A DNA stretch of 62,777 bases, counting the filler. It is 14 parts of 14 records of this genome, joined end to end, with 100 filler letters (N's around TTAATTAATTAA, not from the genome) between each part and the next. Parts side by side here need not be neighbours in the genome. Positions count along the whole stretch, not along the records: positions 38,191 to 41,912 come from SRR15195285_8774; 13 more parts are not named here. One strand, written 5' to 3'. Both the position numbers and the translations under genes were made by a program. Each line of letters opens with the position of its first letter. The first letter of the stretch is position 1. Below the pieces are notes generated by a model. That model was not told the DNA's origin and searched no databases. It saw only the letters and a program-made list of their open reading frames with translations. Below, in pieces: positions 1 to 62,662 of the stretch.

Positions 1-29
1 GCAGCAGCAGCAGCAGCAGCGGCAGCAGC
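1..29. repeat. (CAG)n microsatellite at contig end
   Basis: gcagcagcag... run read directly from the sequence. Confidence 0.9.
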
Positions 30-1184: not shown

Positions 1185-2522
1185 TTATTGCCCCTGCTCA
1201 CGGGCGAAAATGAGGCGCACGTTCTCGGGCTTGAGGTTCGCGTATTTGTTCCGACCTTCGATCGCGACACCGTACCTCCCGCCTTCGGTCAGCCCATCCC
1301 CCCGAATTGTCCCTAGCTGCCCATTAAGCTCTGGCGCTCCTTTCACCCCAGTTACCATCACCTGTGTTCCACCCAGCAACTGCACATTCGCTGGCTTCAC
1401 CGTCACGTTCTTGGTGGGGTCAATCGTATCGTCGGTATCGTCTGCGGTGGTGGGAATGAACACTCGACAACAGTAGCGCTCTTTCTCAGCATGCCAGCTC
1501 ACTGCTTCGGCACGGCAGCCGTTCAGTTCTGTGGCGCTGACCAACCCCACGATCTTCACCTCAACCACTGTTGTCTCTGGCTCTGGTTGTGGCGCTAGCT
1601 CTGCCCTTGTTCCCTGCAGTGCTCGCATTCGCTCTTGCCGCTTGGCATGACCGTGCACTGTTTCGCACGCAGCGACAGCCGCCTCTGTGCTTGGGTGGCC
1701 GGCACCCAGCACTTTTCGAAGGTTGCGCACGGCCTCCTGCAGTAGTGGCAGCGCTTCGGCATATTCTCCGTTGTCCGACAAGTGCGTGCCGAGGTCAACA
1801 ACTGCCATCAGTGATTTGGGATCCTCTGCGCCGAGTGTCTGTTGGTACAGTCGCACGCATTGGCGCGCCATCGGGATCGCCTTTTCGAAGTGTTGCAGGC
1901 GCTTGTGAGCATCCGCCAGCTCTTTCATGGCGTTGAGCGTATGCGAGTGGCCATCGCCGAGCCGCCGTCGAAATCCTTCCACAGCTTCTTCTAGCATTGG
2001 AACTGCTTCGGCTGGGCTGCCATCTGCAATGAGCAATGCGCCGCAAGATTTCAATGAGTGTAGGGCCTCGTCACTGTCCCTGCCGAACACCCTGCGATCG
2101 ATTTCAAGTCCCTGCGTCATCAGCTTTAGCGATCCCGAGATGTCATCTTCGCATTCGTGCAGCGCAATCGCAAGTCTGCTCATGGCTGAAATGCGCTCTG
2201 GGATGAATTCAGGAAGTGAGCGCACGGTCTCCCAGCATGCCCGGGCCAGGCCGATCTGCATCGCTCCAGTCCAATACTGGCGGCACGTCGAGCACGAGTC
2301 CCATCCAGAGAATCCGTCGGCAGCTCGACCGCAAACACCACTGGTATCTGCCTGGTTTTGGGCTGCCTTCGCCTGACATGCGACGTGTGCCCAGCCTGCA
2401 GAGCCACGGCAGGCGCAGCCGCCGTGCACGACGGGACCTTCGCCAGCGCCGCAGAGACAGATGCAGCACTCGTGGGTGCCCTGCTTCTTCTTCTTCCCGC
2501 GCTGCTTCTTCTTGCTACTCAT
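1185..2522 (-). CDS. RING-CH (C4HC3) zinc finger plus kinesin-light-chain-type TPR repeats plus two C-terminal SH3-like protist repeats
   Basis: 445-aa intronless ORF. RING-CH: CCIC...CACRGSAGWAHVAC...CSTC. TPR_12-like 42-aa repeats: RRVFGRDSDEAL, RRLGDGHSHTL, QTLGAEDPKSL, KVLGAGHPST. Duplicated motif GLVSATELNG...RY...VKPANV and GVKGAPELNG...RY...LKPENV. Confidence 0.85.
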   Translation of the reverse strand: MSSKKKQRGKKKKQGTHECCICLCGAGEGPVVHGGCACRGSAGWAHVACQAKAAQNQADTSGVCGRAADGFSGWDSCSTCRQYWTGAMQIGLARACWETVRSLPEFIPERISAMSRLAIALHECEDDISGSLKLMTQGLEIDRRVFGRDSDEALHSLKSCGALLIADGSPAEAVPMLEEAVEGFRRRLGDGHSHTLNAMKELADAHKRLQHFEKAIPMARQCVRLYQQTLGAEDPKSLMAVVDLGTHLSDNGEYAEALPLLQEAVRNLRKVLGAGHPSTEAAVAACETVHGHAKRQERMRALQGTRAELAPQPEPETTVVEVKIVGLVSATELNGCRAEAVSWHAEKERYCCRVFIPTTADDTDDTIDPTKNVTVKPANVQLLGGTQVMVTGVKGAPELNGQLGTIRGDGLTEGGRYGVAIEGRNKYANLKPENVRLIFAREQGQ

Positions 2523-20688: not shown

Positions 20689-22542
20689 TCACGGGATTGA
20701 GGGGCGAGCTCGACAGTCGGCTGTGGGTGGGGAGCATGCGATCTTGTCCTGCCAGTCGCACGCCGCCTTCCGGAGCCCGGTCTGCGCACGTACCCCACCC
20801 TCAGACACCGTCTCCAACCGCATGATCGTGTCACCCTCTGGTGTCCACTGCGGCCACACGGGCGGAACACCAATGCCGACTTCGCGGTGCACCGCTGCCG
20901 TCGTCGTCTCGTTGATCGTCTCGGCTGGCTTAGGATTGGGATCGCCCGTGGCCGCAAAGGTGTACCAATAGCGCGACACCGTATCTGCCAGCGCCGCCTC
21001 CTCGGAAGTGAAGGGTGATGCCGAAGGCGAACCGCGTGGCTTATTGAAGACAAAGCCTAGCTCGGCGGTGTGGCTGGCGAACACAGGAGTACCGAATTTC
21101 CCAAACTCTGGTTGCCCATGTGGAGGGTGGGCAAAGAGGTAGGAGTACACCGCCGGAGTTCCTCCCGCGACAAGCATTCTGTCCATCCAGCGCACTGCAC
21201 AGGCTCCGAGCCCTGGAATGGTATCGGTGGCGCTGCGGATGGTCTTCCAGTAGTCGAGCGAGAAGTTGGCATTGGGCTCCGTGGCCAGTAGTGGATAGCT
21301 ATAGTTTGCCGGGTCGTAGACTTGCAAGAACTCTTGGTAGAGCGTTTGGTTTTTGCCGTAGAGCCATGGAGGATTGGACTGGACGGTGAACTGCATCATC
21401 ATATCGTTGAGCTGTGCCGGCATCATTGGCATCGTCATGAACGCAAACTCGTCGCGATTCGAGCCGATCAGCACACGCGCTGCGCTGTGGTACTGCTTGG
21501 CGGCGATGAGAGCAGCAGGCGATGCGGTCAGCGACACGCCATCGACAGTGGGGCCGGAGCAGCACCCCCCTGGCTCACCTGGGTGACCGGCTATGCTGGG
21601 GGGCACCTGGGTGTTGGCTGCCAGAAGCTCTGACGCGTTCTTAGCACGCAGGCAGTCGAGGCCCGAGCAGCCCACCGCCTTGAGCAAGGCCTGGTAGCCA
21701 GCCTCCGCATTCTCGCTCGTGCGGGCTCCCTCGTCGTTGAGGCCGCTTTCGATGATGGCCTTTTGATACAGGGGGAAGGATGCAGGCTGCGCCAGATGGT
21801 TGAAGACTGAGTTACCCCCTGCAGATTCGCCAAAAATTGTGATGTCATCACCATTGCCACCGAATGCTGCAATGTTGTCCTTACACCACTTAATGGCAGC
21901 ACGCTGATCTTGTATGCCAAAGTTGCCGCTGCCACCGCCACCTGTGCTTGCGGCCACCTCGTGCCCACCAAGGAAACCAAAAACTGACAGCCTGTAACTC
22001 ACGGACACAACGATAACGCTGCCCCTGCTGGCGGTTGCCAGCGACTCGATCGGGTATTCGCTGGGGTCGCCCTCCTGGTATCCACCCCCGTGGATCCACA
22101 CCATGACGGAAATTTTGCTGTCCATATTGCCCAGCGTGGCAGTGGGGGCGGCAACGTTGAGGAAAAGACAATCCTCGCTCTGGACCTCGCCCCAACCAAC
22201 GTTCAGCGAAGAGCCCAGCTGCCAACCACCATGTGCTGCCTCCCCCAGACGTCCTTGCAAACAGCACGCGCCATATACGGTCGCGTTTAGGGTCTTCGAG
22301 CCCCAGCCTTTGTGCGGCTGCGGTGGCTTCCAGCGTAGCTCTCCAGTCGGGGGCTGTGCGAACGGAACGCCGTAGAAACTGCTGAGCCCTGAACCTTCGT
22401 CGACGCCCTGCATCCGGCCGAGGCCGGGCACGTCTACGACCGGATATTCCGTCGCAGTCGTGAGGGTCTCGGGCGCTCTCAGCACTACGTGCAACTGCAA
22501 GGCAACAACAGACATGCGCCACGTTCCGAGGTACGCCATCAT
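20689..22542 (-). CDS. Type-B carboxylesterase/cholinesterase-like alpha/beta hydrolase
   Basis: FYGVPFAQPPTGELRWKPP, SEDCLFLNV, WIHGGGY, FGESAG (catalytic Ser), GSNRDEF (Glu), ASHTAEL (His). Likely start MMAYLG at 22542; the upstream in-frame extension is GC-rich promoter. Confidence 0.93.
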   Translation of the reverse strand: MMAYLGTWRMSVVALQLHVVLRAPETLTTATEYPVVDVPGLGRMQGVDEGSGLSSFYGVPFAQPPTGELRWKPPQPHKGWGSKTLNATVYGACCLQGRLGEAAHGGWQLGSSLNVGWGEVQSEDCLFLNVAAPTATLGNMDSKISVMVWIHGGGYQEGDPSEYPIESLATASRGSVIVVSVSYRLSVFGFLGGHEVAASTGGGGSGNFGIQDQRAAIKWCKDNIAAFGGNGDDITIFGESAGGNSVFNHLAQPASFPLYQKAIIESGLNDEGARTSENAEAGYQALLKAVGCSGLDCLRAKNASELLAANTQVPPSIAGHPGEPGGCCSGPTVDGVSLTASPAALIAAKQYHSAARVLIGSNRDEFAFMTMPMMPAQLNDMMMQFTVQSNPPWLYGKNQTLYQEFLQVYDPANYSYPLLATEPNANFSLDYWKTIRSATDTIPGLGACAVRWMDRMLVAGGTPAVYSYLFAHPPHGQPEFGKFGTPVFASHTAELGFVFNKPRGSPSASPFTSEEAALADTVSRYWYTFAATGDPNPKPAETINETTTAAVHREVGIGVPPVWPQWTPEGDTIMRLETVSEGGVRAQTGLRKAACDWQDKIACSPPTADCRARPSIP

Positions 22543-23030
22543 CGTCACTCGTTCACAAGTTCTCCCTCCTGCTCCTCCCCCACCTTCCCTCTTCACGCCA
22601 GATCTCGCCGGTACATCCAAACATGACCGGTCATGAATGCATCCGCACGCACGCGCACGCGCGGCGCCGCCGCCGCCGGCCGCCCCCGGCCGGAGAGATA
22701 CCGAGAATTCATACATGTGCAGGCAGGCCCGGCGCCGGCCGTGCCGCGTGCGCGTGCTGTGGTGGAATTTCCGATCGCGCGACCGACGACGCCCCCGGGC
22801 CCGCCGCAAGCCGGAAGGGGCACGGCACCCTCCTGGCGATGCAGCTTCCCGTTGATCTTCCGCGCCACCGACGCCACCGTCGAGCCGCTGCGCGGTGCGT
22901 GCACCGGGGCGCGTGAGCGCACCGACGCAGCTGCAGCGAGGGCGTGAGGTTCCCGGGCCACGCACCGCTTCGCTGCCATCGGGTACTGGCTGGGGGGCTG
23001 GCGCTGCGTGGTGGCGGTACGACAATCGAT

Positions 23031-30132: not shown

Positions 30133-33100
30133 TCACACTTCTCGGGTTGAGCCGCCGCCGCGTTTCCCTCCGGACTTGCGGCGCCGTCTTTCCCATCGCT
30201 CGTTCGTCCCAGCCAGCTCTCCCCATTGGTTGACTGCGGCCATGAGCGTCCGGCACAGCAGCGTCAGCAGCAGGAGGTCGGCGCGAGCAGCGATCCAAAC
30301 CCACTGCATGGCACCGTTTGTGAAGCGTACCTCTAGCTGCCCCTTGGTAGCCCGCAAGCACCTTCGGGTCAGTAGTCGGGCCGCTCTTGTCCGGGTCTCC
30401 AATGGGTGAGAAGACGCTGCGTGCAAAACAGTTGGTCAAGAAAGGCACAGCAATCCCACCATGTGGCAAACGTAGCCACACAGCCATAGCCACAATATAT
30501 TCGAATAGCAGAAGTAGCGGGTAGGTACACAAGACAAGACAGCACATGCAAAGCAGATCTAATCCCACTGCACCTGTTCTGTTGGAATTGAACATCATCA
30601 GCCATCCGAAACATCCCACTGGATGATGGCGCCCGTCGGGGTCCTGCCGCGTGCTCAAACAGTTCCTCAGATGTTACTGAGGTGCGGTCTACGGTCGACG
30701 CCCCGCCTGCGCGACACGGTGGCGCAACCACCGCAATTAGTACCAATTCATATACGATTTAGGGACAGAAGAGGACAAGACACCGGCGAGACATAGGAAG
30801 GAGGAAGGTGGAGGGTGGAGGGTGGAGGGTGGAATCATCCAAGTGCGACATATGAGAAGAGCAATTTTTCAAGAGGTTATGTCTCTGCGTTGGCATGTGG
30901 TGGGCCAACTAAGCATGTGATACACCAAAAGGGGCGCACCAGGCGACATAAGTTGGCTGCTGAGGCGTAGAGTCTCGCTTTGCTGGATGACCCGTTCTTT
31001 TGACAGTTTCACGCCTTTCTCCAGATCTGAAAGGCGCTGCGAAATGTTGGTCTTCTCCATGAGAGTCTGCATCTTGAGCCCGACAACGAAGGTCATGTTG
31101 TACAGGAGTCGCATGTGGGCGTCACTGCATGCGCCCAAATAAGACATGATGTAGAAAGGTGCTATCAGCACATATCCAAGAACGAAGTCCCACATCCAGT
31201 AGGATGAGTAGATGAATTCACTCCTGTAGCCCATGTAGTAGAGCGTGTTCACCACGAACGCGTAGACATAGCCAGCCGCTGCGAAGTACTCGAAAAGAAG
31301 GTCAACTGGGTGTGAATACTTCTGGAAGAGGACGTAGACAGCGGTAACTATCACTCCGCAGGAGAACAAAACCGCGATGCGGCGCACCCGCCGCGACTTG
31401 AGCCCTTGCTGAAAGCAACCGAGGCCCATGAACGAAACGGAGTTGCGCGTCACGCACAAATTCACCATCACACCGAAGAGCACGATCGCCGGTACTATCC
31501 ACAAATGCTCCGTAGAGGAACCTAGATTCTCGACGATGATCGCCAGCGCAAGGATCAGCCAGAACAAGTTGCGGCAGATGAGGTTGGCCTTCTGTGTCGT
31601 ACTCAAATTATTGTAAATCGAGTTGGCATCTTCCCAGTGCGCGCGCCATGACATGTTCGGGTCTACCAAGTCGTTCCGCCCGATAAATTTGCGCCAGGCA
31701 TTCAGGTCTTTTTCTACCTCGGTGCGGTCAAACGCCAGACAGTTAAAGATGAATGGGGCATACAGCAGGTCGAGCGCGAAGAGCCATGTCGCCCAGGACA
31801 CAGCTAAGTACTGTGACTGATCGACGATGAACTGCCAGTACACTAGCAGATTGAGCGTGAGAGTGAACCCGTAGTTGAAATGCGAGTTGCAGAACATCCG
31901 GAAGAGCTTTACAAAGTTTGTGTGGCCGAGAACAAACCCGCGGCCAGTTGGCATGTACTTCGCGCCACCGAGCGTGATCGTAATATCGTAGAAGTAGCTC
32001 TTAGTACGGATGTGGAACATGAAGAATAACGGGCCACCAGTACCGAGGACGCGGAGCATTTGATATGTTGCAGCTCCAAAACCCTTTTCAAGTATGAGCT
32101 CAGCCACCAGAGGCACGGTGAGGATGATGCCGAGCTGGACTGAAAAGGTAACGGCTTTCGTAAGGTCGGAGAGCAGTGCACTCTCTTCGTCTGGAATGCA
32201 GATCGAGATGAGCAGTTGAGTGTAAACGAACCAGGAGGTTGACCAGATTACGAACATGTTAGACCAGTAAAAGCCGTTGGACGAGTGGAAGAAGGACAAC
32301 AGCCGAGGCAAGTCGAACTGGTCTGTAAGCCTCGAGAAGTCGCGGCTCAGAGCCTGCTCACCATTTCCGGAGGATATCTTCGACTCGAAAAGGTACACCT
32401 GCTCGAAGCCAAGATCCTTGCCCTTGCCAGCCTTGATGTACTCGCGGTATATCACCCTCCCTCCCTTCAGCACAGAGTTGAAGGCGCCGAAAATATCTTC
32501 AGAGACGCACAGTACTTTATTAGCCTTGGAAATTCCACCGCGTGTCACGTGGAATAGTCGACAAAACACGTCGGGGTGGCCGTAGTGCATGCGGACGTCG
32601 AAAGGGCTGCCCAGAGTACGCTGGATCAGGGTCGCAAATGTGAATTCTGTCAACGCAGCGAATTCGGCAGTGGCACTGAGCGCCTCCGTGAACTGGTGCT
32701 CTGGGAAGCCAATGATGGCAACACGGTCTTTGTCGAACTCTCGAAGAAGGTTGCGCATCTTGAGCGCCTCCTCGAAGTAGCCGTCCTGATTCATGTCCAA
32801 AGTCTGGATGGTCTCACCACGCGTGAAAATGATTGCGTGGTTCTGATTCTCAGGTTTGCCCTCACCGACAAGCATGTGCCCAGGTAGTTCCACCCGGTAA
32901 ATCTCGACCGTGTCATTGGAGGGCGCATCCCAACGCATGAGGCACGAGTAGTGCTTCCTCTTGTCTTCGCTCTCGTCAGTGTACGCAATCCGCAAATGCG
33001 GAAAGAGCCTCAGTAAATCCTTGATCTGCTGTACCTTAGCGTGGCGCGGTGTCCCTGGCTTCTCGCGCGTGTAAGCACCATAAATCTGGCATGAAATCAC

Positions 33101-33556
33101 GTAGCCGTACTTCTGGTGCGCGTGCTTCTGCGGGAGCGTTTCCGAGCGCCACACGGCACCGCGTGCCATTCGATCGCGCGGGCTGCTAGAATCGGTCGTC
33201 GAATCGCCACGCCGTCGGGTTCCTCCATCCTGCTGCGGCAAAGGTTCGTTTTCATGCTCGTGCTTAGCAAACAGCTGCAGGGCCTCATCGTACTGCATAA
33301 TGCCGTGTATCACGCGCGCGAGGGTCTGACCACGAAGTGATGCCCACAGCCGCACTTCCATATTCATGAGCGGATCGTCCCATACCTTTTCCGGGATTGT
33401 CGGAGGATCGCGGTTCGCGCCTTCTAGGCCCAGGCGTTCAAACATGTTAGCCCACTCGTTCGGATGCATGGCCTTGAGGTAGAAGCACCACGAGGGTGTG
33501 CCGCCGGAGCTACCGCAAATTTGATCCTGGTCATAGAGTACATCTTCGTCGTAGAA
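30133..33556 (-). CDS. Partial 1,3-beta-glucan (callose) synthase, GT48 (FKS/GSL family)
   Basis: RLWASLRGQTLAR, LRIAY, GEGKPENQNHAIIFTRGE.IQTLDMNQD.YFEEALKMRNLL, RMHYGHPD, SEDIF, KISSGNGEQ.LSR, multiple TM helices. Short C-terminal exons splice through to the stop at 30133. Confidence 0.95.
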
Positions 33557-37568: not shown

Positions 37569-38192
37569 GAATAAGTACCCTGATCAAAACCAGCGAAACC
37601 AGGGCAAATCCCAATAGGAAGCGAAAATGAAAATCACTGGTTGGAGGTTTAGCGCGTTACCAGCGGCTGCGAACGCGCGCAGCGATGCAGCTGAGCTCGG
37701 GGCTGGCTGGCCTGCAGTCGCTGATGCCGCTGCAACTCGCTGCTTGGCCGCGCGCCGGGCAGCTGCTCCCCCACCGCTCGCACCGCGCCCTCCCCATTGG
37801 CTTGGCACTGGGGTGTTCAGCCACTGGCTCATCCTCTGTCGTGCGCCGATCGGCGTGCTCGCGCTGCGTGCCGCCACGCAAGCGCACAGCCACGAGTGTG
37901 CACTCGATCGCCGGCGCCGTTGGCGTTGCGGCGGGCGGCGGGCGCGCGCTGGCTTAATTTACACTTCAAGTCAACCGCGGCCGCGGTGTACTGTACACCC
38001 CTTTTAGTGTACGAAAAAGTCGTATTCCTGCATTGCGTTCTTTCGACTTCCCAATATTAAACCGAATATTCTGAGCCTAGTAGCCCTGTANNNNNNNNNN
38101 NNNNNNNNNNNNNNNNNNNNNNNNNNNNNNNNNNTTAATTAATTAANNNNNNNNNNNNNNNNNNNNNNNNNNNNNNNNNNNNNNNNNNNNGT

Positions 38193-41100
38193 CTGTCGGC
38201 GTACTCTGGAGAGTCGGTGACTCTGTCTACTGATGTTGTTAGCTTTGGTGTTGGACGCACGCTGTCTGCTTTTGCAGGGGAACACGTTTCCGTTGCTTCG
38301 ACTCGAGCGTCCGTGCAAGCTGCGGAGTCGCTGACTATTGCGTCCGGTGACTTAGATGTTTACACTTCTGGTGGCGTCGCACTTGCCGCTGCAGGAAGTG
38401 CTGAGGTCAGCGTTTCTGAGTCCGTGTCGCTAACCATGCAGTCGTTAGGTTCTTCAATTGAGCACGATGCATCGGTCGTTGTTGGTGGTGACGCGTCGCT
38501 GGACGTATCCGAACAGGTTCGCCTAATGTCTGGGTCAGATGCGTCCATGTTTGTCGATGGTGATGCGTCACTCGTCGCCAGCTCAATCACAAGCAGTGCC
38601 ATGGGTGCTGGGTCATTCACGATGGGCTCCGCAAGTGTCGATATCCTTCATGACGCCAACTTGCTCTCAGGAGATGCCACCATCAGTGCCAAAGATGTCC
38701 GCGCAGTGGCAGATTCGATCGGCATGATGGTAGCTGGGGATAGCGACGTCGTCTTCGGCAGTGATCTCAAAGTCCAGAGTGCTGGCGACCTCAGCATTTT
38801 TGCTGCTGACAAGCTCGATGTCGGAACAGGGAGTCTAGCCATCCAAGCAGAAGGGACTGCTGCCCTTGCAGCTGAGTCGATCGATATTTCGAGCCGGCGC
38901 GGGCTTTTGCTGGCTGCACAGGGAACCTCGATCGACTTGTCTCCAAGTGGTGATAACGGAATCAACACCCTCACTCTGCCTGTTCCACGGCAGTTTGACG
39001 AGTTTCAGGCAACTGTTCCACGCGTTGCGAACGTCGATGGCATCGATCTCCTGTCGGCTATATCCATCAACGGCCCGACAATAGTGTCGTTCGAAGTGTT
39101 AGACGAGGAGGCGGGCGAGTGGCGGCAGCTGTGGGGTTCCCAGATTTCGGAGGAGAATTTCGAGCTGGTCAAGGTATCCTTCCCTGTTGACCCACCGCTC
39201 AGTGTTACGCGAATCCGGCTGAAGTCGTCGATCGATCGCAACCCGACGTTCAGCTGCCCTGGGTCTTTCATCACTGTTGCGTTGCGCACTTCGTCAAAGG
39301 GAACTGTCAAGATTGCGTCTGAGTCTGAAATTTATGCCACTGCCGCGGAGGTTTTCAGTGTCACGTCACCCGAAATTCTCCTGACTGCTCGAGACAGCAT
39401 GGAGTTCTCGGCCCCGGATATCAACGTTTTGAATGACCATACGTCTGTGCATGCTACAGGCGAGCTGAGCGCACTGACGGGAACAGCATCTCTCAGTGCA
39501 ACAGACGATCTCATTGTTTCTACGACAGGCCTGATGGAAATCTCGTCAGCAGACTTCATTTTGGATGTTGTCGACGATGCGTACCTGTCTTCGGCTGGAG
39601 TTGTGTCAGTGGAGTCGCAGAATGCCTCGTTTGTCGCGAATGAGGATGCCTTCATTGGGGCCCAGAGAGTGTCGGTTGTTGCCGATGACACCGCAGATGT
39701 CTTCGCACAAAACCAGATGAGTGTGGCGTCGAATACACTCGATGTAAGCGTGGATGACTCAGTCAACATCAACTCTGGAGGCAAACTCGATGTGCTCGCA
39801 GAGGAAATCGAGATTTCAACAACAGATACGTACTTGTCGACGGGAGATATGACAATACGAAGCAGTGGCCAGCTTGACATGCATGTGACTGATTTGATCG
39901 AGGTTGTCACTGTTGGAGTAGAGGTGGACGCCTCTTCTCTCGATTTGACAGTGCAGCAGGAGATCGACATTACGTCAGGGACAGGTATTCATCTCGCAAC
40001 CAAGGATTCAATCACCGCGATTAGTCAGAACGTGGAGATTATGGCCACGAAACTTGAGGTGATCACATTGGAGCAAATTAAGCTGGCGTGTGCAGACTTC
40101 GTGATTGACTCCGCCGACGAGAGCATCAATGTTGTTATGAAGGAGGAGATGCAGATTGGTGTCGATCACATGTGGGTGAACTCCGACGGCACTATGTACA
40201 CACGCGCTGGGAGGGATTTCGACCTGGTGGTTAATCACGACGCACTTGTCAGTGTCGGTGGCGACCTTCAGGTGTTCGCGACGGATAGCATTGACCTACT
40301 CTCATCAAATTTGACTACAGCTGTTGGCAACATGGAACTGCAGAGTAATACGGCGATGGTCGGTGGGTCAGAGCGAGTCAAGCTTGCTACCACTGGTGCA
40401 GCTATCACAATGCAGAATCTTGGAAACGCAGATTTTGTGACGTTGAATTTCCAGATGATGGACAAGTTCAATGAGTTCGAGAACCTACTGCCGACGGTGC
40501 AAGATGTATCTGAGTTGATGATCTTGGACCCACTGTCATCCGTACCTACTGCGAAGGCGCTGGCGCGCATCACCCTTGAGTTGCTGGGTGACCAAGGATG
40601 GGAAACAATTTGGCAGCGGGTTCCATCAGCTGGGGACACCTCGATGGCTGGGTTCACCCATGAAATCGCTCCGATTTCGGTCTCTGGCATTCGGATGAAT
40701 TCCGACCCATGGCTGCAGATGAGCTTCGTGGGTTGGACTGGCGTGATATTCCAGCTGAAGTCTGAGCGCTACGGCGCCATTCAAATTGACGCAGGCTCCT
40801 CGTTTGATGCGATATCTGGAGAAGACATGCAGTTCACCGCTCCGGACGTGCGCGTGACAGCTGCAGACAGCCTGAACGTCTGGGCCGGGGAGAAGGCGAG
40901 CATCCATGTCAACGATCTGGCGATTGGTGCGATGGGAGAGATATCACAAGTGGCCGGGCGTGTTGCAGTGGAGACGACAGATGGGCTCACTGTCCAGACT
41001 GGAAACGAGCTAGATTTGTCCGCAGGGTCGTTGCGCCTACAGTCTGTAGGCACCGCCGACATCACTGCGGCTGAGGCTGTTTCGGTTGCTGGCAGCGACA

Positions 41101-41912
41101 TGCAAGTCTCGCTGGCAGATAATCTTGCCGTCCATGCTGAATCTCTTGTTGCGAAATCTGGCAGGAATCTCGAAGTCTTTAGTGAGGACCATGCATCGTT
41201 AACATCAGCTGAGGTAATCTTGAGCGTCGGCGACAAAGTGGACACTGTTGCCCGAGCAGTCGATGTCACGGCAGGCGAAATTAAGGTGGTCGGTGACACG
41301 TTTGACGTGCACGCAATGAGTGACCTAACAGTCTCGAGTCAGGATATGACTGTGGCAGCTCAGGGCGATATCACGTTAAGCGGAGCTGAAAGTGTTGACG
41401 CGAGCATAGAGACATTGAATCTCGAGGCTCGTGGATCCCTCTGGACATCCGCGGAAGATGCAGCGGCCCTGATCACAGAAACAGCCATTGTCGAAGCTGG
41501 CGAGCATGTGGTTGGAACTGCCGGTGGCACGGTCCAAGCTACTGCCTCGGAATTCGTGATCGAGGCCGCCTCTAGCATGGATGTAACGTCTGGCGATGTC
41601 AGCATGGCCGTGGTGGAAGACATTGCTGCGGAAGTCGGCGGGGCGATGAAAGTCTCCGCTGCAGAAGGGTCAATTGAACTTCGGCAATCATCGGACACTA
41701 TGATAGGGGGGGACTTGATGGTCACGACAGGCGGGCGAACATCTGTTTCCGGCCGAGCCGCCAACGCAGCATTCATTGACGGTGTTGCAGTAACAGGTCG
41801 TTCGATTGAGCTACACAGTGCAGAACGCATCGGCGCGACTGCACGCGAACTCAACGTGAACGCTCTAGAGGCTATGACTGTCGGCAGCACAGGTGCGGTG
41901 GTTGAGCTGAGC
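38193..41912 (+). CDS. Fragment (>1240 aa, open at both ends) of a giant acidic beta-helix repeat protein with periodic globular inserts
   Basis: No stop and no intron across the whole 3.7-kb contig. Rich in S/A/D/V/T/G with 7-8-residue alternating hydrophobic repeats. Super-repeat anchors at 38898, 40371 and 41868. Confidence 0.88.
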
Positions 41913-42012: not shown

Positions 42013-45000
42013 ACTGTCGCCAGATCGACGTGTTTGACACGATCGCACGGCCGTGCGTCGACGATATTTTCTTCGGTTTCAACGGCACTATCTTCGCGTA
42101 CGGCCAGACTGGCAGTGGTAAGTCGTGGTCCATGATGGGTGGCGACAAGCACGACGCCGAGCTGAAAGGCATCATCCCGCGCTCTGCCGAGCTGATTTTT
42201 GAGAAGGCGTTTGCCGACCAGACCGGCACCACGTACCAGGTCGCCTGCTCATATCTCGAAGTGTACAAAGAGATCATTGGCGACCTGCTGGACCCGAGCA
42301 AGAAAAATCTGCAAGTGCGCGAGAAGCCGGGCATGGGCATGTACGTCGAAGGTCTTTCGCAGCGTGGGGTCTCGAACATGGACGAGGTGATGGAGGTGCT
42401 CGCACGTGGCGACGCGACGCGCGCTGTGGCCTCGACTAACATGAACCAGAACAGCTCGCGCTCCCACTCAGTCTTTGTCATGCATCTTCTAGCGAAAACA
42501 CCAGAGGGAGGAACCAAAGCTGGCAAGCTGAACCTGGTGGACTTGGCAGGCTCAGAAAAGATCAGCAAGACTGGAGCGAGCGGTGAAACGCTGGAGGAGG
42601 CCAAGAAGATCAATCAATCGCTCTCAGCTCTCGGCATGGTCATCAAAGCAATAGCGGACGGGAAGACGCATGTTCCGTACCGCGATTCCAAACTCACGAG
42701 GATATTGCAAGAGGCGCTAGGCGGCAACAGCAAGACCAGCCTGTTGGTGGCAGCAAGCCCACATTTGGATAACATCGAAGAAACTATTTCAACGCTGCGC
42801 TTTGCTGAACGAGCCAAAAAAATTAAGAACGTCGTGACGGCCAACGAGGAGAAGAGTGTCGCGGAGCTCAACGCAATCATCAATGCGCTGAAGAAGGAGA
42901 ACGAAGGCCTGAAGGAGTATGCCATGGGGCTCGAGAACGCCTTGCGTGAAGCTGGAATTGATCCCAGTACTGTTGCACCGGTCGACATGGAGGATTTTAG
43001 GGGCACTGGTGGTGGTGATGGTGATGGTGGTGGTGGCGGTGGTGGTGGTGGTGCTGAGTCGCCACTCGTGCGAGTTCCATCCAGCTCTGGTGGTGGAATG
43101 TCTCCCGAGGCTGTCGCACAGATTGACAGACTCAACGAAATGTTACGTATTGCGAATGAGGAAAAAGAGCAGGCTTGGAAAGACAAAACCGCTGCTGAGG
43201 CGACCATCGATGCAACGTACGCGGAGGGGCGCGAGCTTATCCAGAAAGCTCAGCAGGAGAAGCTGGTTCTTGAGAAGCAAAGGCACCAAGAACGCGAGAT
43301 TGTCAAACAGGCAATGGACCAACTCAAACACCTGCAGGGTCAGGTCGGTGAGAAAGACGCTGTGATTCAAAAGGCTCTGGATAAGATGAAGGAGCTCAAT
43401 GGCCAGTGTGCCACGGCGACTCAGGCGCACCAAGCAGCTGAGGCAGCCTCGCGGCAGCTAAGAGAGGAAAAGGACACTATGGCGTCAAAGGTACGGGAGC
43501 TACAAAATCAGCTCGCCAAGGCCGGAGCATCACTGGCTGTGATCGCTGAGTCAGCTGGTGCCGACGGCGGAAGCGGCGCGCAGGCTGCAGCAACGGCAGC
43601 GCTGCAACAGTTGCAGGCGGCAGCAGCAGCTGAGGTGCCGGCCCCAGCACCGCCTCCGCAGCAGGTAATAGCAACAATCCCGGACGATGTAGAGCCAGGT
43701 AGTACATTCGAGGTTACACTGCCATCCGGTGAGGCAGCCGTCGCAGTTGTTCCAGAGGGTGCAATGGCCGGCGAGGCCAGAGAAGTTACAGCAACGATCC
43801 CGGCTGCTGCACCAGTAGTTGGGGTGCCACCGGTCGCGGCTGCCGGCGGCGGCGGTGGAGGGCAAGAGGGCGCGCTTGCTGCAATGATATCGAGAGTCGA
43901 CGCGCAGGAAGCTGAGCTCAAGAGTGCGACGCAAGCCTTAGACGTACAGCGAGCTAAGGCACAAGAGCTGCAAGCACACCTTGATGCTACTCGAGCACAG
44001 CAGAGCAAGCTAGAGAGAGCAAGTGAGGAGAAGATGCAGAAGATGGTCGAGCAAATGACTCGTATGCACGCGGATACTGAGGAAGTGAGCAAACGAATGG
44101 AAGAGAAGGACGCTGCGATCAAGGAGGCAGAGGCGAAGATCGTGGACGAGAGGGCGTTGCATGAAGAGGTCACCAGTCAGCAGCAGAAGGTGATCGAGGA
44201 CCTTCAGCTGGCGATGCAGGCGAAGGATGAGAAGCAAGGCGCACAGAGCAACATCATCAAAACACTGGAGAGCAACGCAGCAGTAGCATCCATGCGGAAT
44301 TCACTTGGGGCCGTACCAGCACAGGAACCGCCACCCATCGGTGGTGGTCAAGACCATGGCGGTGATCGAGGTCCAGAGACACCAAGCACTGAGACATCAC
44401 GTGACACTGAGACGGCTTCTGAGATGCGTACAAAGGGAGAATTCAGAGACTTCGATACGGTGACCAAGAAAGAGAAAAAGTCCTCCGGCTGGTTAGGTGG
44501 GTGGATGTCCGCGTCCAAGGCGGAGGGCGGGGCAGAGCAAAGCCGTACCTTAAAAGACATAGTAAGAGACACCGCCGCGACGGCCAAAGGGTATTTTGGT
44601 ATGGCCGAGGAGGAAGAGGAGGAGCAGCGGCCACAGCCAATGATGCCACTGCCGCACTCGGTGACGTGCGTGATAACTGAGAATGGGGTAACACAGCCTG
44701 CCAAGAGGTTCGATGGCGCTAAGACCAAAATGCATTTGCCCCCCTACAATACGGAGATAGAGACCGAGTGCACGACGATGCTAGACTACTTGGACCGGAT
44801 GCACTCGAATCTGCAATGCCTGTCTTCCAGCTACGAGGCGTACCTGGAGGCTGTACGCCAGCTAGATCAAGCTGCAGAGGGTCTGGCCGAGCCGCTCTGG
44901 GCATTCGCGGGCGTGCATCCACCTGCCAAAGTATTGTTCACCATTATAGCACAGACGACGTCCGCGCAGAAGGAACAGCTCGAAATGGCGCAGGGTGTGC

Positions 45001-46643
45001 TTGAGTCAACTGTACAGAGCTTCTGGACTTCGACCGATGCACAGGAGGTAAAGGAAGGGACGCTGAAGAATATGGTTACGGGGGCGTCAAATGATTACAA
45101 CGTGGCAATGGCGAAAGCGTTGGCGAACACACGCCCCGAAAAGTACGAAACCGCGCTACAAGGTGCAAACGGAGCAAAATGTGCCGCTGCGAAGCACAAC
45201 GTCAGTCGCTGGAACTACATCTCAACTCTGGAACGGCTGGCACACGAGCGTGAGTTGGAAACAAATCGGTTGTTTTCACGCTTCCTGGACGCGCAGTGTG
45301 AAATTGCTGACCTGAACAGAATACAGCACGAGAAGATGGTTCCAGAGATTAAGAAGGCACAGGAGCAGATCAAACACGACACCGCGATGATGAAACGTAT
45401 GTCCAAAGCGCAGCAACAATACCAGTTAAGGCTGTCGCTTAAGATCGACCGGACGCAGCTGGATAGTGAAGCAGAGCAGCTTCCTGGTGTGGAGTTCACA
45501 GCTCACACTGCTGAAGGCTTGGTCTTCATGAAGCCGAACGTGTTGAGTGGCGGCGCGAAGAAGATGAAGATTCCGTGCGTTATCACAGTCCACAAGGCCA
45601 AGCTGCATCCGTGTCTTTCGCTCATCCTTGATCTGCTTGCAAACAACTTGTGTCGTTTTCAGTGTTGCTAACAGTGCCCACTCCCCCTCTGATACCCCAC
45701 CGCGGATGTCTTCCAAAATTGCAGGTGGCTACCAGCCTGGGTATCAATCAATTTTTCTAGTGGGGATCTGCACTACAACGCACGGTGGCAAGGACCGGTT
45801 GCTGGCATGGATCAAGCCCTTCATAAAGACTTGGACCTCGAGGGCCGTATTCATGTCAGGAGCTCAACAGTCAATGGACTGGTGCGTGCAAATCTGGCGC
45901 CATTGTTCGAACAAGGCATTTCTGTGAAAGCGTGGGCCAAACGGCGACCACAGGGGATCGTTTGCTTCAATTGTCATGCGGCTTTTGCTGATTAAGCGTT
46001 GTGGGCACAGGATGCGGACAACCCGAACAGAACCAGCCTGAGGCGGTTGTTCCTCTTTGAGGTAGAGCAGATGGCGGATCCAGACGGTGGGATTAGTGTT
46101 GCTCCAGTGGTTCGTCTTTTCCAGGCGCTTTCACCAGCAGATATGGATCAGTGGAAGGTACGCGCCAGTGTGAAATATGTGGTCATCAACTGCAGCATGT
46201 TTTGACTGCGGAGAGTCTCACGTGAACTCGTGCTGGTCAAATTTGTGTACACATCGCAGCAAGCGTTTGAACAAGCAATGCAGGGTGAAGTGGCTTCTCC
46301 CTCGACCGGTGGAGATCCGTCCATCTCAGGGCCTATCCACCTGCAACCGGTACGTGCTAGACTTGATTGTTCTGACGCACACTCTACGCTGCACATCAAC
46401 AGCCACGCGTCTCTCTCGCCTATTCTTGTTCAGCGTGACCGAGGCTGCAGGTCACTTGCGGGTCGAGGCGCAGTTGCCACTTGCTCACCGATGGGTGTGC
46501 TTGTGCAGCGCGCGCTTGACATGAACACCGGCGATGCGCGGGAGCGAGTTGCACTCCCAGTGGGTCTTTCTGGAACACTGCCAACAGCGCCAGAGCCAGA
46601 GCCAGATGGATACTATGGCGGTGCGAGTCCTGGCGGTTTGTAG
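42013..46643 (+). CDS. Partial kinesin (kinesin-1-like motor) with coiled coil, BAR domain and PH domain
   Basis: AYGQTGSGKS, NQNSSRSH, LVDLAGSEK, HVPYRDSKLTRILQ. Long coiled coil, helical BAR-like region about 44750-45445. Spliced PH: EGLVFMK..|WLPAWVSI..GDLHY..EGRIHV..|LFLFEV..LFQA.S..DMDQWK|QAFEQAM (introns 45575-45724, 45882-46010, 46158-46259). Confidence 0.9.
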
Positions 46644-49111: not shown

Positions 49112-51251
49112 CTAATAGATGCCAACCTTCTTTTTCATCGAGGTTTGTTTCCACTTCTTGCACTCGGCGAACTGAGCGCGTGACATGCCCATTGCAGAGC
49201 GGAACTCCGCATCCGACAAGTAATCCTGACCCATGCATCGCAACGCACACGGCAGTTTAGCTCAACTGACCAGCCAACGCGCTGGCTACATCCTCGCTAC
49301 ATGAAACATCGGGGCGCGGACCTCTTTTCGTGTCGGATCGACTCCCTCCACCATTCCGGCCCGGAGCTCTTCCAGTGTGTGCGAGCCCGCCTCTCCGGAA
49401 GACCCGCCTTCCTCAGGTGGTAGCCGCGTCAACCCGAGGTCCGCCTGCGTTTGTTCTCGTGGAGTCGGTGTCAGGCCGGACGCGGCAGCCAGGATTAGGT
49501 CCTCTTCTTCCGAACCGCTGCTACTACTATCATCGTCACCGTCGTCCTCTTCGCACGCCAGCTGGATCGGCGTTCGTCTGGCAGTGGTTGCCAATCCAGC
49601 TGGCAAGGGCGCCGATGAAGCTGGCATGGGCGAGGGACGGTCAGGGACTATGCCCAGGCTGGAAGACCCAGGACGGGAAGGTGGTGTCGGTCGCGTCATT
49701 TCTTCTGGCACGTCAAAGTCGAATAGCAGCGCAGCGCCACCCGGCGACATGGTAATCGCCTCGACCACCGCATGCTTATCATCTGTCTGGATGCCGTTAA
49801 TCGCCACTATTTTCCAACCTGGTTTCACACCCGCCGCCTCGCCTGGACCGTTCTCAATAGTGAAACGTGCCACCACAGCGGACTCGTTTACCTCTAGTCC
49901 GAGACCAGAGCTGCCACGAGTGAGCGATAGCTGCTGTCTGGTGTGCCCAGGTCTAGGTGCTGGTCTAGGCACACCTTCATCCACAGCAGCTTCGACAACT
50001 TTCAGGTCCAAGGGCGCAACTGGTTCATCTGGTGTAGGAGTAGCAGGCTGTTCCGGTTTATCCTCAGGTTCCTCCTTTTTATCCTCATCGTCAAGTTTCT
50101 GCAGCACTACAACGCCAGCGCCCGTCTCCACACTGACCCAACCTTTGTCAAAGCGTACTCGGCTCACACCCGTGTCCTCGTTGGTTCGCACCTCGTACAC
50201 ATCAATCACCATGCCAGCGTCCAACGCCCCGACTTTGCTTGCGTCCATCTCAAAGTCTGCTCTGACCTGGCTCTTCTTCACGCATTTATATCTCGCTACC
50301 ACTATTTCCGCTTCAGCTGGCCTCGGCTCTGGCTCTGCCTCTGATCCCTCCTTTCGAGGGGTCTCTACGCCGGCACACACTGAGCAGATTCGCTCAGTCA
50401 GCACCTTAGTCTCCGTGACCTTTCCCATTAGATCAGAACTGCTGCCTGTAACTGTGCGCTCGCGCTTGTAAGCAGAGCATGCCTTGCACACATTGCAGCC
50501 ACACGCTCGGCAGTGATGCCTTCGCAACTTGTAGGAAAATCGTCGTTCGCATACATGGCACGTCTCTGCATTTGGTGTCCACACTGCTGCCGCGACTTCG
50601 GCAGCCCATTCCTCGTCGCCCTCGGCGTCGCCACGACGTTCTGCAATCGCCTCGTTAATCAGGTCAAGCCACTCTGTCTTTTCTTGCACCGCTTCCACCG
50701 GATCGCCTTCACACACGATTTCGAACGATTTTGCCGAGCTGTTCAGGAAAAATGCGTTGGTCGGGTTCAGACCGTGCGAAGTTAGCATCTTAGCCTGCGT
50801 TGCAATCTGTGCTGGAGTGATGTCAGTGACACTCGTCGCAGCGTTCTTGAGCTCAATCCACTGGTGCAGCTTGTAGGTATTCGATCCAGTTGCAGTCTCT
50901 GTCGTAGTGAGAATGATGTCTGAGAACAGCATCAGATGGTACTTCCTGACATCCTTGCGCGTCACCTTGAATATGTCTCCTGTTCAAATGCGAGGTACAC
51001 TCAGACTACTCCGATCCTACTGATCAAACGCACCACAGGCCTAGTATTCGATGGGAACACGCTGAGACGGAAAGCCAGGGTCGGGTCAGACTAGCAGGTT
51101 ATATGGTGAGATCTGGGGCTTCGCACCACGCTTCAGAAGCCAGCGGTCTAGATCCATCAAGGTGCGACCATCGAGATTCTTCATGGATTCCTGAATTTCG
51201 AACAGCTCCTCCAACTGCTCGTTCTCACGAATAGCTTCGTTGACTGTGTTT
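49112..51251 (-). CDS. Partial FGD/frabin-like RhoGEF: DH end-PH-FYVE-SH3-like-PDZ-villin headpiece
   Basis: VNEAIRENEQLEELFEIQ (DH-PH linker, 51129-51251); YHLMLFSDIIL...EWLDLINEAI (PH); W.P...C..C...RRHHCRACG (FYVE); KGWVS (SH3b-like); GLGL...KIVAING (PDZ); GVDPTRKE|DYLSDAEF..MGMSR..F...KKWKQ...KKKVGIY (HP; intron 49226-49321). Confidence 0.88.
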
Positions 51252-59740: not shown

Positions 59741-62662
59741 TCACATGACAAAGCTGCCAGTCACAACGTTGCTTGCATGCTTAGCGTTGGCTGGCAATTT
59801 CGCCCGTGGATCGCTAGGAAGATGGCCACCGACGCTCACTGAGACGGATCCAGTCGCTGGGCGGCGCGAACCGTCTGCCCCCACGAGAGTAAGCGATTTC
59901 GGCCCGTCTATGTCGAACGTAACCTTTGTCGATGTACCCGGAGCGAGCAACACTTTCTCGAACCCCGCCAGTGCAAACGGAACTGGAGGAAGTGCACTGC
60001 CAGCACCGTCTAGAGTCAAATACAACTGTGCAACTTCAGCGCCTGGTTTCTTGCCGGTATTGGTGACAGTGACCGAAACAGATGTCTTAGTTGCGGCCAG
60101 CTGTGAGTAAGAAAACTGCGAGTAAGAGAGCCCTGCAACATGCACGGCACGTTAGCGCAGTGTGCTAGTGCAGTCTAAGATGGGCGGGGGGACTGCGTAC
60201 TCACCCCAGCCAAAGCTGAATAGAGCGTCTGTTTCCTGCGAAGCGATCCTACGGTAGGTCCGGCCCTGCTTTCCGAAAGTCATGTTAAGGTTTGAAACAG
60301 GACCAACTCCAGATAGGTAGGCCGTGGGATGGATTGTCAGGGGAAGACGCCTACCAGCGTAAGACAGGGAGTCCGTCAGCGTTTGCGTGCAAATGTAGAC
60401 GTACAGGAGTAGGTGAGTTGCTCACCCTGATGGATTCACATGGCCCCAGATCACGTCCGTAAGGCCGTGGCCTGTCTCCTGGCCACCATACCACAGCTGA
60501 ATAACTGCATCAATTCCAGTGAAATCTGCGTCCACGCCCCCAGCAGACATGATTGCGAGAACGAGCTTGGTATTGGCGCCAGTCTCGGTGTTTCGCTCCT
60601 TGATGGCTTGTTTGACTGCCGCGAGCAATGCTATTTGCGGTTTAGGGAAATGAAGATCGCTACGATCTCGTCCCTCGCCTTCGATGTCGTTTCCAAGCCC
60701 AAGCGAAAGTATCACCACATCAGCGGTTTTCACAGCAGCTGTTGCTTCAGCAATCATGGACGCGTTTGCTTGTGTTCCAACCTGCTCGCTCCCTTGTGCG
60801 TAGATGACGTGGAAGCCACAAGCCTGGCCTTCTTCAGTCACAGCGTCCAACACAGTGTTGATGTAACTAGGCTGGCCTTTGTAATTGTTCAAATAGCCCA
60901 TCGAGCCACCATACCCACCGCCACGTTCCTTGCAGTCACTCCAGGGACCGATCACCGCAACCGTTTTCAAGCCAGCTGTTGCTAGTGGCAGCGCGTCATC
61001 AATATTCTGCAAAAGCACTGCACTGGCCGCTACTGCCTTGCGCGCAACCTGCTTATGCTGACTCGAGTCGAGCAGGTCGATCGGATACTTCCCGAAGAAG
61101 GGATTCCTCGCGTCATCGAACTCACCGAGACGGAAGCGAGTCAAGAACGCTCGTGTGACGGCATCATCCAGCGCTTTCTGCGTCATTTTACCTGCCGCGA
61201 TCGCGTTCTGGATATCGTTGAAGACATTGTCGCCGTAATCGAGCTGAATGCCAGCATTGATCGCCGCAGCGACAGCGTCCTCGGTGCTGTTGAAGTTTTT
61301 GTGCGTACTCACAGCGTTTCGGAACGTGCCACAGCAGTCGGTTTGACGGATGCACTTCGTGCCCCAGTCTTTCACTAACTTATCGTAAAGGTAATCATTT
61401 GCAGTATCTGCCATCCCGTTCAGTGCGGAGATAGAGAACATGATACCTTCGGCATCTCCGTCCACTTGGAAGGCTTTGAAGGGCGGTAGAAACTCGTCCT
61501 CCAAACTGGCAAGGCTTCCGTGATAGTCTCCCGCGCCGTTGTCCGGACTGGACCCGTGGTCGGTGATAAAATGGCGCGTCACCTGGCTGGTCTGCAAGAA
61601 GTAGTCGCCATTTCCCGCCACCCTAGTCTTGTTTTGCAGTGCGAGCGTCGCTATCTTGCCTACCTGCCCTGTATGATAAGGGCATTCGCCGTACATCTCA
61701 GATGTGCGTCCTACTCGCGGATCGTACGCCACATTCGCCAACGGCCCACCGTCAAAGTTCGTGGCGCCGATATAGGCGCCATTGTGCAGCGTCCAGTATT
61801 TCTGCTCGAGGACACGAGCCTCGATTGCCGTGACCTGGCTGATCTCTCGAATCATGTCTCGATCAAAGGTGGCTCCAATGCCAATCGCGTGGGGAAAGCA
61901 GGTGTTGTTGAACTTGAAGACCTGATCATCGACTCCCTCGATATCAGTGGCATCCCAGCGGAATGACTTGACGTTCAGGCGCGGCACGCCATGTAGCTGT
62001 CCCACCAGCATGAAGGTGTTCAGCTTCTCTGCTATGGTGAGGTTAGCCACGAGCGCCGCCGCGCGTGCTTCCATGCTGAGGCTTTGGTCGCAGAACTTCA
62101 GGCCGGCAGCTGGAGAACCGGGCGCACATGTTCGCATACTGGGCATCGGCGCTGGGGGCGGCGGCGGTGGCGGAGCACCTTTCGAGTCCAGGCACAGGCG
62201 ACTGCCTTTGTTCTGCAGGTGCGAAAAACCATCGCTGTTGTTCACGGCGTGCCAGTCGCAGTTGCCTTTGCACACAGCTGTGCTGCAGCTGGGAAAGCCC
62301 CACACCGTTGTGCCCGGTGTCTTGCCGTAGCCCTCGAGATTGACGCACATGTTCTTCTTTGCGGAGAGCACGAGGAATGAGTCTGCGGTGATCTCCCACT
62401 TCTGCTCCGCCGTTAGCGGAGACTCACACGGCTTGAGCGACAGGGCAATGCCAGCAGCCTCCTTTCCGCCCGCCGTCAGACACTCCAGCGCCTCTCCCGC
62501 CGCCGCGGTGCCTTGCAGCGCCCCGTCGCTGCCGAGCTTCCACCTCTGCTCCGGCGCATCCTTGCAGGCCTGCCCAGTGAGGTCTGCAAGGCCACCTGCC
62601 GCCTGCTGCAGCACAGCGCACACGCCAAGCAGCGCAGTCCGTCGCGTCGTCGCCATCGCCAT
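59741..62662 (-). CDS. Secreted GH3 beta-xylosidase/glucosidase with N-terminal ricin-B lectin domain
   Basis: Signal peptide, QRW/QKW ricin repeats, FPHAIGIGATFD, DPRVGR.SE.YGE.P, nucleophile TDC, EGEGRDR, NPSG|RLP, FGW|GLSY, AEVAQLY. Introns 60351-60425 and 60133-60204. Confidence 0.93.

Follow-up and report, generated by a model that had tools for sequence, protein, structure and literature searches.

Extracellular rods, many of them bearing lectin or enzyme modules, are known from the passenger domains of autotransporters (Vag8, pertactin), from the two-partner secretion (TPS) adhesins HMW1, FHA and EtpA, and from phage tailspikes. A different kind of rod is found in the spikes VgrG, gp5C and TvpC, in which three chains are built of 7-8-residue strand-turn units with a strict 8-residue period, alternating inward hydrophobic residues and Gly/Asp/Asn turns. 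These spikes are not known to carry globular inserts. The DNA analyzed here, called the window, is a stretch of 62.8 kb (positions 1-62777) that consists of 14 separate contigs of 3.0-6.0 kb with a GC content of 54-61%, joined by N/TTAATTAATTAA spacers, so that neighbourhood across a spacer is without meaning. The contig at positions 38191-41912 encodes the predicted protein P0001 (other P numbers denote its relatives), which has likenesses to both kinds of rod. P0001 is predicted to fold as a compact single-chain right-handed β-helix interrupted by jelly-roll domains, and the contig is, on balance, probably an internal fragment of a gene from an uncultured marine picoeukaryote, whose product would be a secreted rod that binds glycans multivalently and serves as an adhesin or a surface fibre.

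The contig is a single open reading frame (ORF). The frame runs through both contig ends, and P0001 is thus part of the product of a longer gene. The composition of P0001 (S 12.4%, A 11.9%, V 10.9%, D 8.1%, G 8.1%) is strongly acidic, with 176 D+E residues against 56 K+R, and nearly free of Cys (2 in 1240 residues). A first-pass annotation, made from the letters of the DNA, had described the contig as one open frame for an acidic and nearly Cys-free protein, and both descriptions hold over the 1240 stop-free codons counted from 38193. Its further description of the gene as intronless fits the contigs from RNA libraries discussed below, which run across the stretch without joints or indels. No paralogue of P0001 was found by tblastn in the rest of the window, where the only match was P0001 itself, and no Rfam family was found in the window.

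P0001 is organized in super-repeats. The three anchors to which the same annotation had assigned periods of 491 and 499 amino acids (aa) were reproduced at aa 236, 727 and 1226 (nucleotides 38898, 40371 and 41868). A whole unit aligns with the next one, aa 240-563 matching aa 731-1062 at an offset of 491 with 23% identity in 338 columns (E 2e-19), which shows that the duplication extends beyond the insert; aa 183-215 and aa 675-707 align at an offset of 492. The two inserts, also described earlier as homologous, are alike over 211 columns. The fine periodicity was scored with BLOSUM at various lags, as z against 300 shuffles, in the three helix stretches aa 1-250, 401-725 and 894-1240 (Table 1). 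Lag 23 lies above lags 8, 16 and 24 in all three stretches, and the hydrophobic autocorrelation of P0001 has its peaks at 23, 15, 8, 31 and 46. When aa 894-1240 are written in rows of 23 residues, one frame is kept across most of the 15 rows, and the column stack shows some drift. A coil thus consists of 8+8+7 residues, and this makes the three faces of the helix non-equivalent, or quasi-equivalent. The 7/8-residue strand-turn units of the first-pass annotation are thus real as short units; the exact repeat length, however, is 23 residues.

The fold was predicted with AlphaFold2 (AF2) for aa 160-740, using an alignment of 20 rows. The model is all-β, with a mean predicted local distance difference test score (pLDDT) of 87.5 and a predicted template modelling score (pTM) of 0.75. 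Its strands, of 12-14 and 4-5 residues, recur every 22-23 residues, and most helix blocks have a pLDDT above 90. In a VIA-align search of this model against 48,161 representative chains of the PDB, the top ranks are occupied by single-chain right-handed β-helices with Z values of 16-21, 257-430 aligned residues and root-mean-square deviations (rmsd) of 3.6-4.4 Å. These include the passenger of the autotransporter Vag8 (Z 20.9, 369 aa aligned, 4.4 Å), the upper-tail protein of phage Andhra (Z 20.6, 430 aa, 4.3 Å), MpAFP (Z 18.3, 280 aa, 4.0 Å), the secretion domain of HMW1 (Z 17.9, 270 aa, 3.8 Å) and pertactin (Z 17.6, 340 aa, 4.4 Å). Many tailspikes and pectate-lyase-like enzymes follow at lower ranks, and left-handed helices (YdcK, LpxD, GlmU, LpxA) occur in this search solely at an rmsd above 12 Å. 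The Z values and the 23-residue period are those of a right-handed single-chain solenoid with about 22-25 residues per coil. The long β-helix claimed earlier is supported by the confident all-β model and its superposition on known β-helices.

Other searches returned little. Foldseek found no match to the 581-aa model in the PDB at E up to 1e-3. Against BFVD it reached E values down to 3e-8, with TM-scores of at most 0.31 and an rmsd of mostly 14-50 Å, which indicates mere generic β-helix likeness. The single sequence of P0001 has no match in the PDB at E up to 1, and scans of NCBIfam and PHROGs gave none; β-helix, pertactin, haemagglutinin and autotransporter families of Pfam and NCBIfam are absent at E up to 1. 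P0001 is thus like the autotransporter passengers, TPS adhesins and tailspikes in its predicted solenoid of about 23 residues per coil and, as proposed here, in being an extracellular rod with modules. Unlike them, it has no sequence-family match, and no β-barrel translocator or TPS domain was found in it. It also differs from them in its apparently eukaryotic host, in the jelly-roll that recurs every ~490 aa in a tandem super-repeat, and in its 8+8+7 faces.

The insert between the first two helix segments was modelled separately (aa 250-405). In this model the 10-residue blocks over residues 11-120 have a mean pLDDT of 86-96. VIA aligns it best with the furin P domain (Z 8.8) and with the carbohydrate-binding modules (CBM) CBM86 (Z 8.6) and CBM29 (Z 8.2), over 102-109 residues with an rmsd of about 3 Å, and Foldseek matches lambda gpJ and CBM29 with E values of 2e-4 to 1e-3. 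The predicted fold is that of a jelly-roll β-sandwich, with Z values moderately above background. The insert has in common with CBM29, CBM86, CBM32/F5/8 type C, furin P and lambda gpJ domains a β-sandwich of about 110 residues. It differs from the CBM and discoidin families in having conserved motifs of its own (F-D/N-E-F ... W..VW ... V.G.R ... F.GW), which are unlike those of any named family; W, R, F and G columns of the jelly-roll are conserved across the relatives. No Pfam profile of PF00754 (F5/8 type C, discoidin), of a CBM or of a lectin was matched at E up to 1 in P0001 or in seven relatives. Language-model features of the insert point to F5/8 type C or galactose-binding domains at 0.80-0.82, which is below the 0.9 line. 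Of the lectin/discoidin-like knobs proposed at first pass, a β-sandwich of the lectin/CBM type recurring at regular intervals is indeed predicted, but the discoidin assignment stays a lead below that line and lacks a Pfam match.

By combining these predictions, it is possible to describe the proposed structure in some detail. A single chain would coil into a right-handed β-solenoid with 23 residues per coil and three quasi-equivalent faces. After every 14-16 coils, the chain would exit the helix, form a jelly-roll of ~113 aa of the CBM/galactose-binding-domain type, and re-enter the helix. A β-helix rises by 4.8 Å per coil. Tandem duplication of the ~490-500-aa unit would then generate a stiff rod with ~7 nm of helix and one knob per unit. 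A stiff, acidic, Cys-free secreted rod carrying CBM-like domains at a fixed spacing would have the look of a multivalent adhesin, and it is this look that leads us to propose a glycan-binding fibre. As an adhesin, such an extracellular fibre might attach to, or capture, polysaccharide-rich particles or prey; alternatively it might be a filament of a surface coat. It would work in the manner of bacterial lectin-bearing β-helix adhesins. The fold and architecture of P0001 are predictions with good internal support. Its secretion is suggested by the amino termini of its relatives, and glycan binding and adhesion may be expected from the likeness of the knobs to CBMs.

Table 1. Features of the contig that encodes P0001 and of other contigs in the window. 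Values of z are lag scores for the helix stretch given in brackets.
Feature	Position	Residues of P0001	Strand	Basis or remark
Whole contig, single ORF (frame from 38193, 1240 codons)	38191..41912		+	no stop; truncated at both contig ends
β-solenoid segment 1, N-terminally truncated, 23-residue coils	38193..38960	1-256	+	z (aa 1-250): lag 23, 4.0; lag 8, 3.9; lag 16, 2.1; lag 24, 1.9; AF2 strands every 22-23 residues; offset-492 match
Anchor 1, final helix coil preceding jelly-roll 1	38898..38942	236-250	+	
Jelly-roll β-sandwich insert 1	38961..39299	~257-369	+	AF2 of aa 250-405; VIA and Foldseek matches
β-solenoid segment 2, ~14-16 coils of 23 residues	39300..40433	~370-747	+	z (aa 401-725): lag 23, 5.9; lag 8, 3.4; lag 16, 2.0; lag 24, 1.8; block pLDDT 86-97 over most; VIA Z 18-21
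Anchor 2	40371..40415	727-741	+	
Jelly-roll insert 2, homologue of insert 1	40434..40772	~748-860	+	24% identity, E 3e-13
β-solenoid segment 3	40773..41912	~861-1240	+	z (aa 894-1240): lag 23, 6.4; lag 8, 3.2; lag 16, -0.2; lag 24, -0.6; one 23-residue frame in most of 15 rows, some drift
Stretch matching DUF3540 (β-prism half of TvpC)	41157..41510	989-1106	+	E 8.3e-10
Anchor 3, end of solenoid segment 3 at contig end	41868..41912		+	
Long uninterrupted ORF, eukaryotic domains	42030-45671		+	
Long uninterrupted ORF, eukaryotic domains	30869-33469		-	
Long uninterrupted ORF, eukaryotic domains	60422-62662		-	
Long uninterrupted ORF, eukaryotic domains	20689-23025		-	
Long uninterrupted ORF, eukaryotic domains	49286-50965		-	
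ORF of 378 aa	25588-26721		+	protein collection, source 'eukprot'

The family to which P0001 belongs is rare. With aa 232-736 as the query, phmmer run exhaustively against 1.84 billion cluster representatives (E up to 1e-3) returned only 17 relatives, all of them fragments of 36-700 aa, eight with E of at most 1e-10 and three with E of at most 1e-30. A profile search of a collection of 5.8 billion added the complete relative P0019 (1118 aa), and a cluster look-up added another complete one, P0023 (1304 aa). The relative P0003 (71% identity) is, by its source name, from a 0.22-3 μm ocean fraction. P0004 and P0023 repeat the plan of helix, knob, helix and knob. In the complete relatives there are one or two units and the tail is capped, and P0001 has at least 2.5 units. 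In P0014, P0019 and P0023, which have a true amino terminus, a hydrophobic leader is followed by a shared N-terminal cap, as judged by eye. The Kyte-Doolittle maximum over any 19-residue window is 1.6 in P0001 and in these three relatives, and there is no membrane segment. P0007, P0018, P0019 and P0023 have a common tail after the helix, with a motif of the type 'LAE..GV...RL', and in P0007, P0019 and P0023 this tail begins with a two-Cys loop. P0005, which carries the EukProt label of a Picozoa single-cell genome, is the only relative with an organism label; it is co-linear with the second unit of P0001 (31% identity, 489 columns, E 6e-77). Inside the conserved V.G-I-R motif of its jelly-roll, at about residues 197-240, there is a 44-aa in-frame insert, probably a translated read-through intron or else an assembly error.

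Word-indexed searches found no homologue of full-length P0001 among proteins of 682-2170 aa and, with the family profile, none among proteins of 1226-3500 aa, the latter being weak evidence; at near lengths the profile gave four matches among 8000 scored candidates. P0001 peptides gave 46 pattern matches in the JGI metagenomes, none of them a relative, and a narrower family alignment yielded two short loci from 133 pattern matches in metagenomes. No relative was recovered from 185,579 GTDB prokaryote species genomes (0 of 15 pattern matches) or from IMG/VR (0 of 12 alignment-motif matches and 0 of 1 peptide match) in scans limited to a few motifs; as such scans see only globular-domain motifs or a few peptides, absence from them is weak evidence. 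The family members are named solely 'hypothetical protein' in their sources, no published description of the family was found in a narrow literature search, and the titles listed for DUF2345 in eukaryotes all concern the bacterial type VI secretion system (T6SS). The first-pass annotation had considered the protein to be possibly undescribed, and no full-length match to a described family was found in Pfam, the PDB, NCBIfam or PHROGs. The folds are known and the family is undescribed: a β-helix fibre with lectin-like modules, here apparently eukaryotic and with periodic domain insertion.

The stretch is present, wholly or partly, in 19 of 23 listed public runs, 16 of which hold at least half of the sampled words. 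The runs with the stretch include seven RNA libraries and come from 15 studies, all of seawater or marine metagenomes; this DNA itself may stem from one of these runs. In four RNA runs, each of a different study, 4, 8, 7 and 9 contigs cover 24, 22, 21 and 22 of 30 bins, respectively, and all but two of these contigs are at least 99% alike. Of their 24 variant sites, 19 are at third, four at first and one at second codon positions, and 16 are synonymous, which indicates purifying selection on this frame. The codon usage of the P0001 ORF (relative synonymous codon usage r 0.73, third-position GC content 0.57) is close to that of nine other long ORFs in the window (r 0.65-0.82, third-position GC content 0.575-0.73), and the GC content of its contig, 54%, is near that of the others (54-61%). 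Domains encoded on other contigs include a kinesin motor, an FKS-type 1,3-β-glucan synthase, a GH3 enzyme with ricin-type lectin domains, a carboxylesterase and a FYVE protein; the ORFs of the window suggest an intron-poor heterotrophic protist genome. One ORF of 378 aa has an entry with the source 'eukprot' in the protein collection, and its 90% cluster includes members named 4-amino-4-deoxychorismate lyase. To the question, raised at first pass, of whether the contig is eukaryotic or a contaminant, the codon usage, the label of P0005, the 'eukprot' ORF and the lack of prokaryote or virus motif matches answer that it looks eukaryotic. The host may be Picozoa-like.

The first-pass annotation had taken the 7/8-residue units for a triple β-helix like those of T4 gp5 and VgrG. 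On this reading, with the intertwined chains of a homotrimer as also in the TvpC β-prism, P0001 would belong to a needle or fibre of three chains, ringed three-fold by knobs, and might be part of an extrusome or a puncturing device. We regard this as unlikely, but it has the sequence profiles on its side. The sole Pfam match of P0001 is to DUF3540 (PF12059), above the cut-off (39.3 bits against 27.9), over profile positions 74-189 of 199, which is the β-prism part only. DUF3540 corresponds to TvpC, a T6SS accessory protein that a preprint describes as predicted to be trimeric and to combine an OB-fold with a β-prism like that of VgrG (bioRxiv 10.64898/2026.02.23.707444). DUF2345 (PF10106), the VgrG domain, is absent in P0001 and present below threshold in five of the seven relatives scanned (at best 30.1 against 30.7 bits). 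Family profiles run against PDB sequences match nothing but VgrG chains, a gp5/VgrG-type spike, a Gp5 chain, adenovirus fibre, a tail fibre and γ-sarcoglycan, with E values of 2e-4 to 0.17; the β-, γ- and δ-sarcoglycans are reported to form a trimeric β-helix (PMC12750041). The uniform 8-residue repeat of the VgrG/gp5/TvpC prism is, however, not seen in P0001, where lag 23 dominates and lags 16 and 24 are weak. The aligned stretches of VgrG are strict 8-residue units, and one-residue gaps are needed in the family profile to align them. In a C3 homotrimer the faces are equivalent, so that there is no reason for an exact three-unit period of 8+8+7. Furthermore, one chain closes the solenoid in the AF2 model, which superposes on single-chain helices with Z values of 18-21, and no Pfam domain related to gp27, the OB-fold or PAAR was found in P0001, a fragment whose amino terminus is missing, or in the complete relative P0019; no T6SS or phage neighbourhood was visible. 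A complex prediction with three copies of aa 396-726, made without controls or family alignment, scored 0.26 against a mark of 0.32 and is neutral on the trimer. Likewise, the absence of VgrG and gp5 chains from the top 50 VIA rows is uninformative, since a chain running in an open spiral could not be superposed on a compact one. In our reading, the trimeric topology is not sustained: the local units would resemble the spike prism through a similar triangular cross-section, and the topology would be that of a single chain. That the one-sided profile signal reflects real homology is quite improbable; a Picozoa-like lineage would in that case possess descendants of the phage/T6SS spike β-prism, which would form trimeric needles ringed by lectin knobs or would have been re-wired into a single-chain copy of the triangular prism, and P0001 would be part of an undescribed organelle for capture or puncturing.

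The single-chain glycan-binding rod has points against it, which are best considered together with the remaining alternatives. The weak sequence-profile matches point to trimeric β-fibres throughout, with no single-chain solenoid among them. With 20 rows the AF2 alignment is shallow, and the handedness is deduced from which matches superpose well. Neither the jelly-roll nor a β-helix adhesin is backed by any family of Pfam, NCBIfam or PHROGs, and Z values of 8-9 for the jelly-roll are at the level that the tool calls common. Because the amino terminus of P0001 is missing, its secretion is argued from relatives of 20-28% identity. The same fold might serve another purpose, such as a structural coat, a mastigoneme-like hair filament or an ice- or mineral-binding solenoid, the jelly-rolls then being spacers or modules of assembly and not lectins. 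The match of the solenoid to MpAFP, a Ca2+-dependent antifreeze helix, the extreme acidity and lack of Cys, which suit cation-bridged extracellular matrices, and the lack of a lectin family matched by sequence would all fit such a role. We nevertheless give it a low probability: the Pfam scan of P0001 found no antifreeze or RTX-type Ca2+ motif, the best fold matches of the knob are mostly carbohydrate-binding modules and its feature leads are galactose-binding domains, and the runs that contain the stretch are general seawater and marine samples. As to origin, contigs from RNA libraries are no proof of transcription, and the link to 'eukprot' is thin, since only one of the nine window ORFs looked up is in the collection. 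In the tetranucleotide profile, proposed at first pass as a check, the P0001 contig has the weakest correlation of all 14 (0.806; the others 0.846-0.938), a mild caveat, as the skewed amino-acid content of the protein may account for it. This value would also fit an origin outside the eukaryote, in a bacterium, a phage or a giant virus sampled along with it, whose fibre or adhesin gene was binned or co-amplified with the host. The combination of a β-helix with lectin modules in a fibre is characteristic of tailspikes in phages and of adhesins in bacteria. Feature matches in the atlas lead to Planctomycetota hypothetical proteins of ~520 aa at 0.95-0.96, which is a lead only, and the low-scoring BFVD matches include β-helix proteins of a prasinovirus and of Bodo saltans virus. 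Such an origin appears very unlikely, however, given that the codon usage is inside the span set by the eukaryotic ORFs, that the motif-limited scans of GTDB and IMG/VR and the searches of PHROGs and NCBIfam brought up nothing, and that relatives include P0005, with its Picozoa label and its probable read-through intron, and proteins with what by eye are eukaryote-style signal peptides.

If P0001 is a secreted rod with evenly spaced glycan-binding-like knobs, it would be a candidate means by which picoeukaryotes bind colloids, prey or surfaces. Uncultured picoeukaryotes such as Picozoa abound in the ocean. Their trophic role is called unclear in a preprint (bioRxiv 10.64898/2026.04.17.719054), and feeding on nano-sized colloids has been reported for Picozoa (PMC8599508). 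A role in particle capture would fit colloid feeding if the host is Picozoa-like, although nothing in the present data ties P0001 to feeding. In structural terms, P0001 would represent a natural eukaryotic β-solenoid with modular, periodic domain insertion. Its VgrG-like faces, visible at the level of sequence, may be useful for asking how triple and single-chain β-helices are related. Should it be merely another β-helix adhesin, the main value lies in the annotation of a family that is now labelled 'hypothetical'.

Several smaller observations concern the relatives. In P0019, the helix stretch that precedes the jelly-roll (residues ~130-260) recurs, by eye, about 510 aa later (~640-770) without a jelly-roll, which suggests that the knob may be an insertion module, present or absent from unit to unit. 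The end of the same protein (~1050-1118) has weak full-length matches to the SAM domain (E 0.14-0.21), which P0023 does not have; a SAM domain is not claimed, as the matches are weak and the domain would be odd beside a signal peptide. The C-terminal ~100 aa of P0005 are rich in Pro, Arg and Ser and have an out-of-frame look, probably from intron read-through or faulty assembly, and similarly garbled ends occur in P0006, P0009 and P0017. In one of the two short metagenome loci (L002, 1-1589) the two ends are identical over 55 nucleotides, implying a collapsed tandem unit of ~1534 nucleotides, and such a collapse would explain the poor assembly of these genes. The frame of this locus switches near nucleotides 870-900, and 1534 cannot be divided by 3, for which an error in sequencing or a short intron may be responsible. 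P0002 and P0011 end in short peptides, which we take to be translated sequencing adapter and which would fit gene calls on raw-read assemblies.

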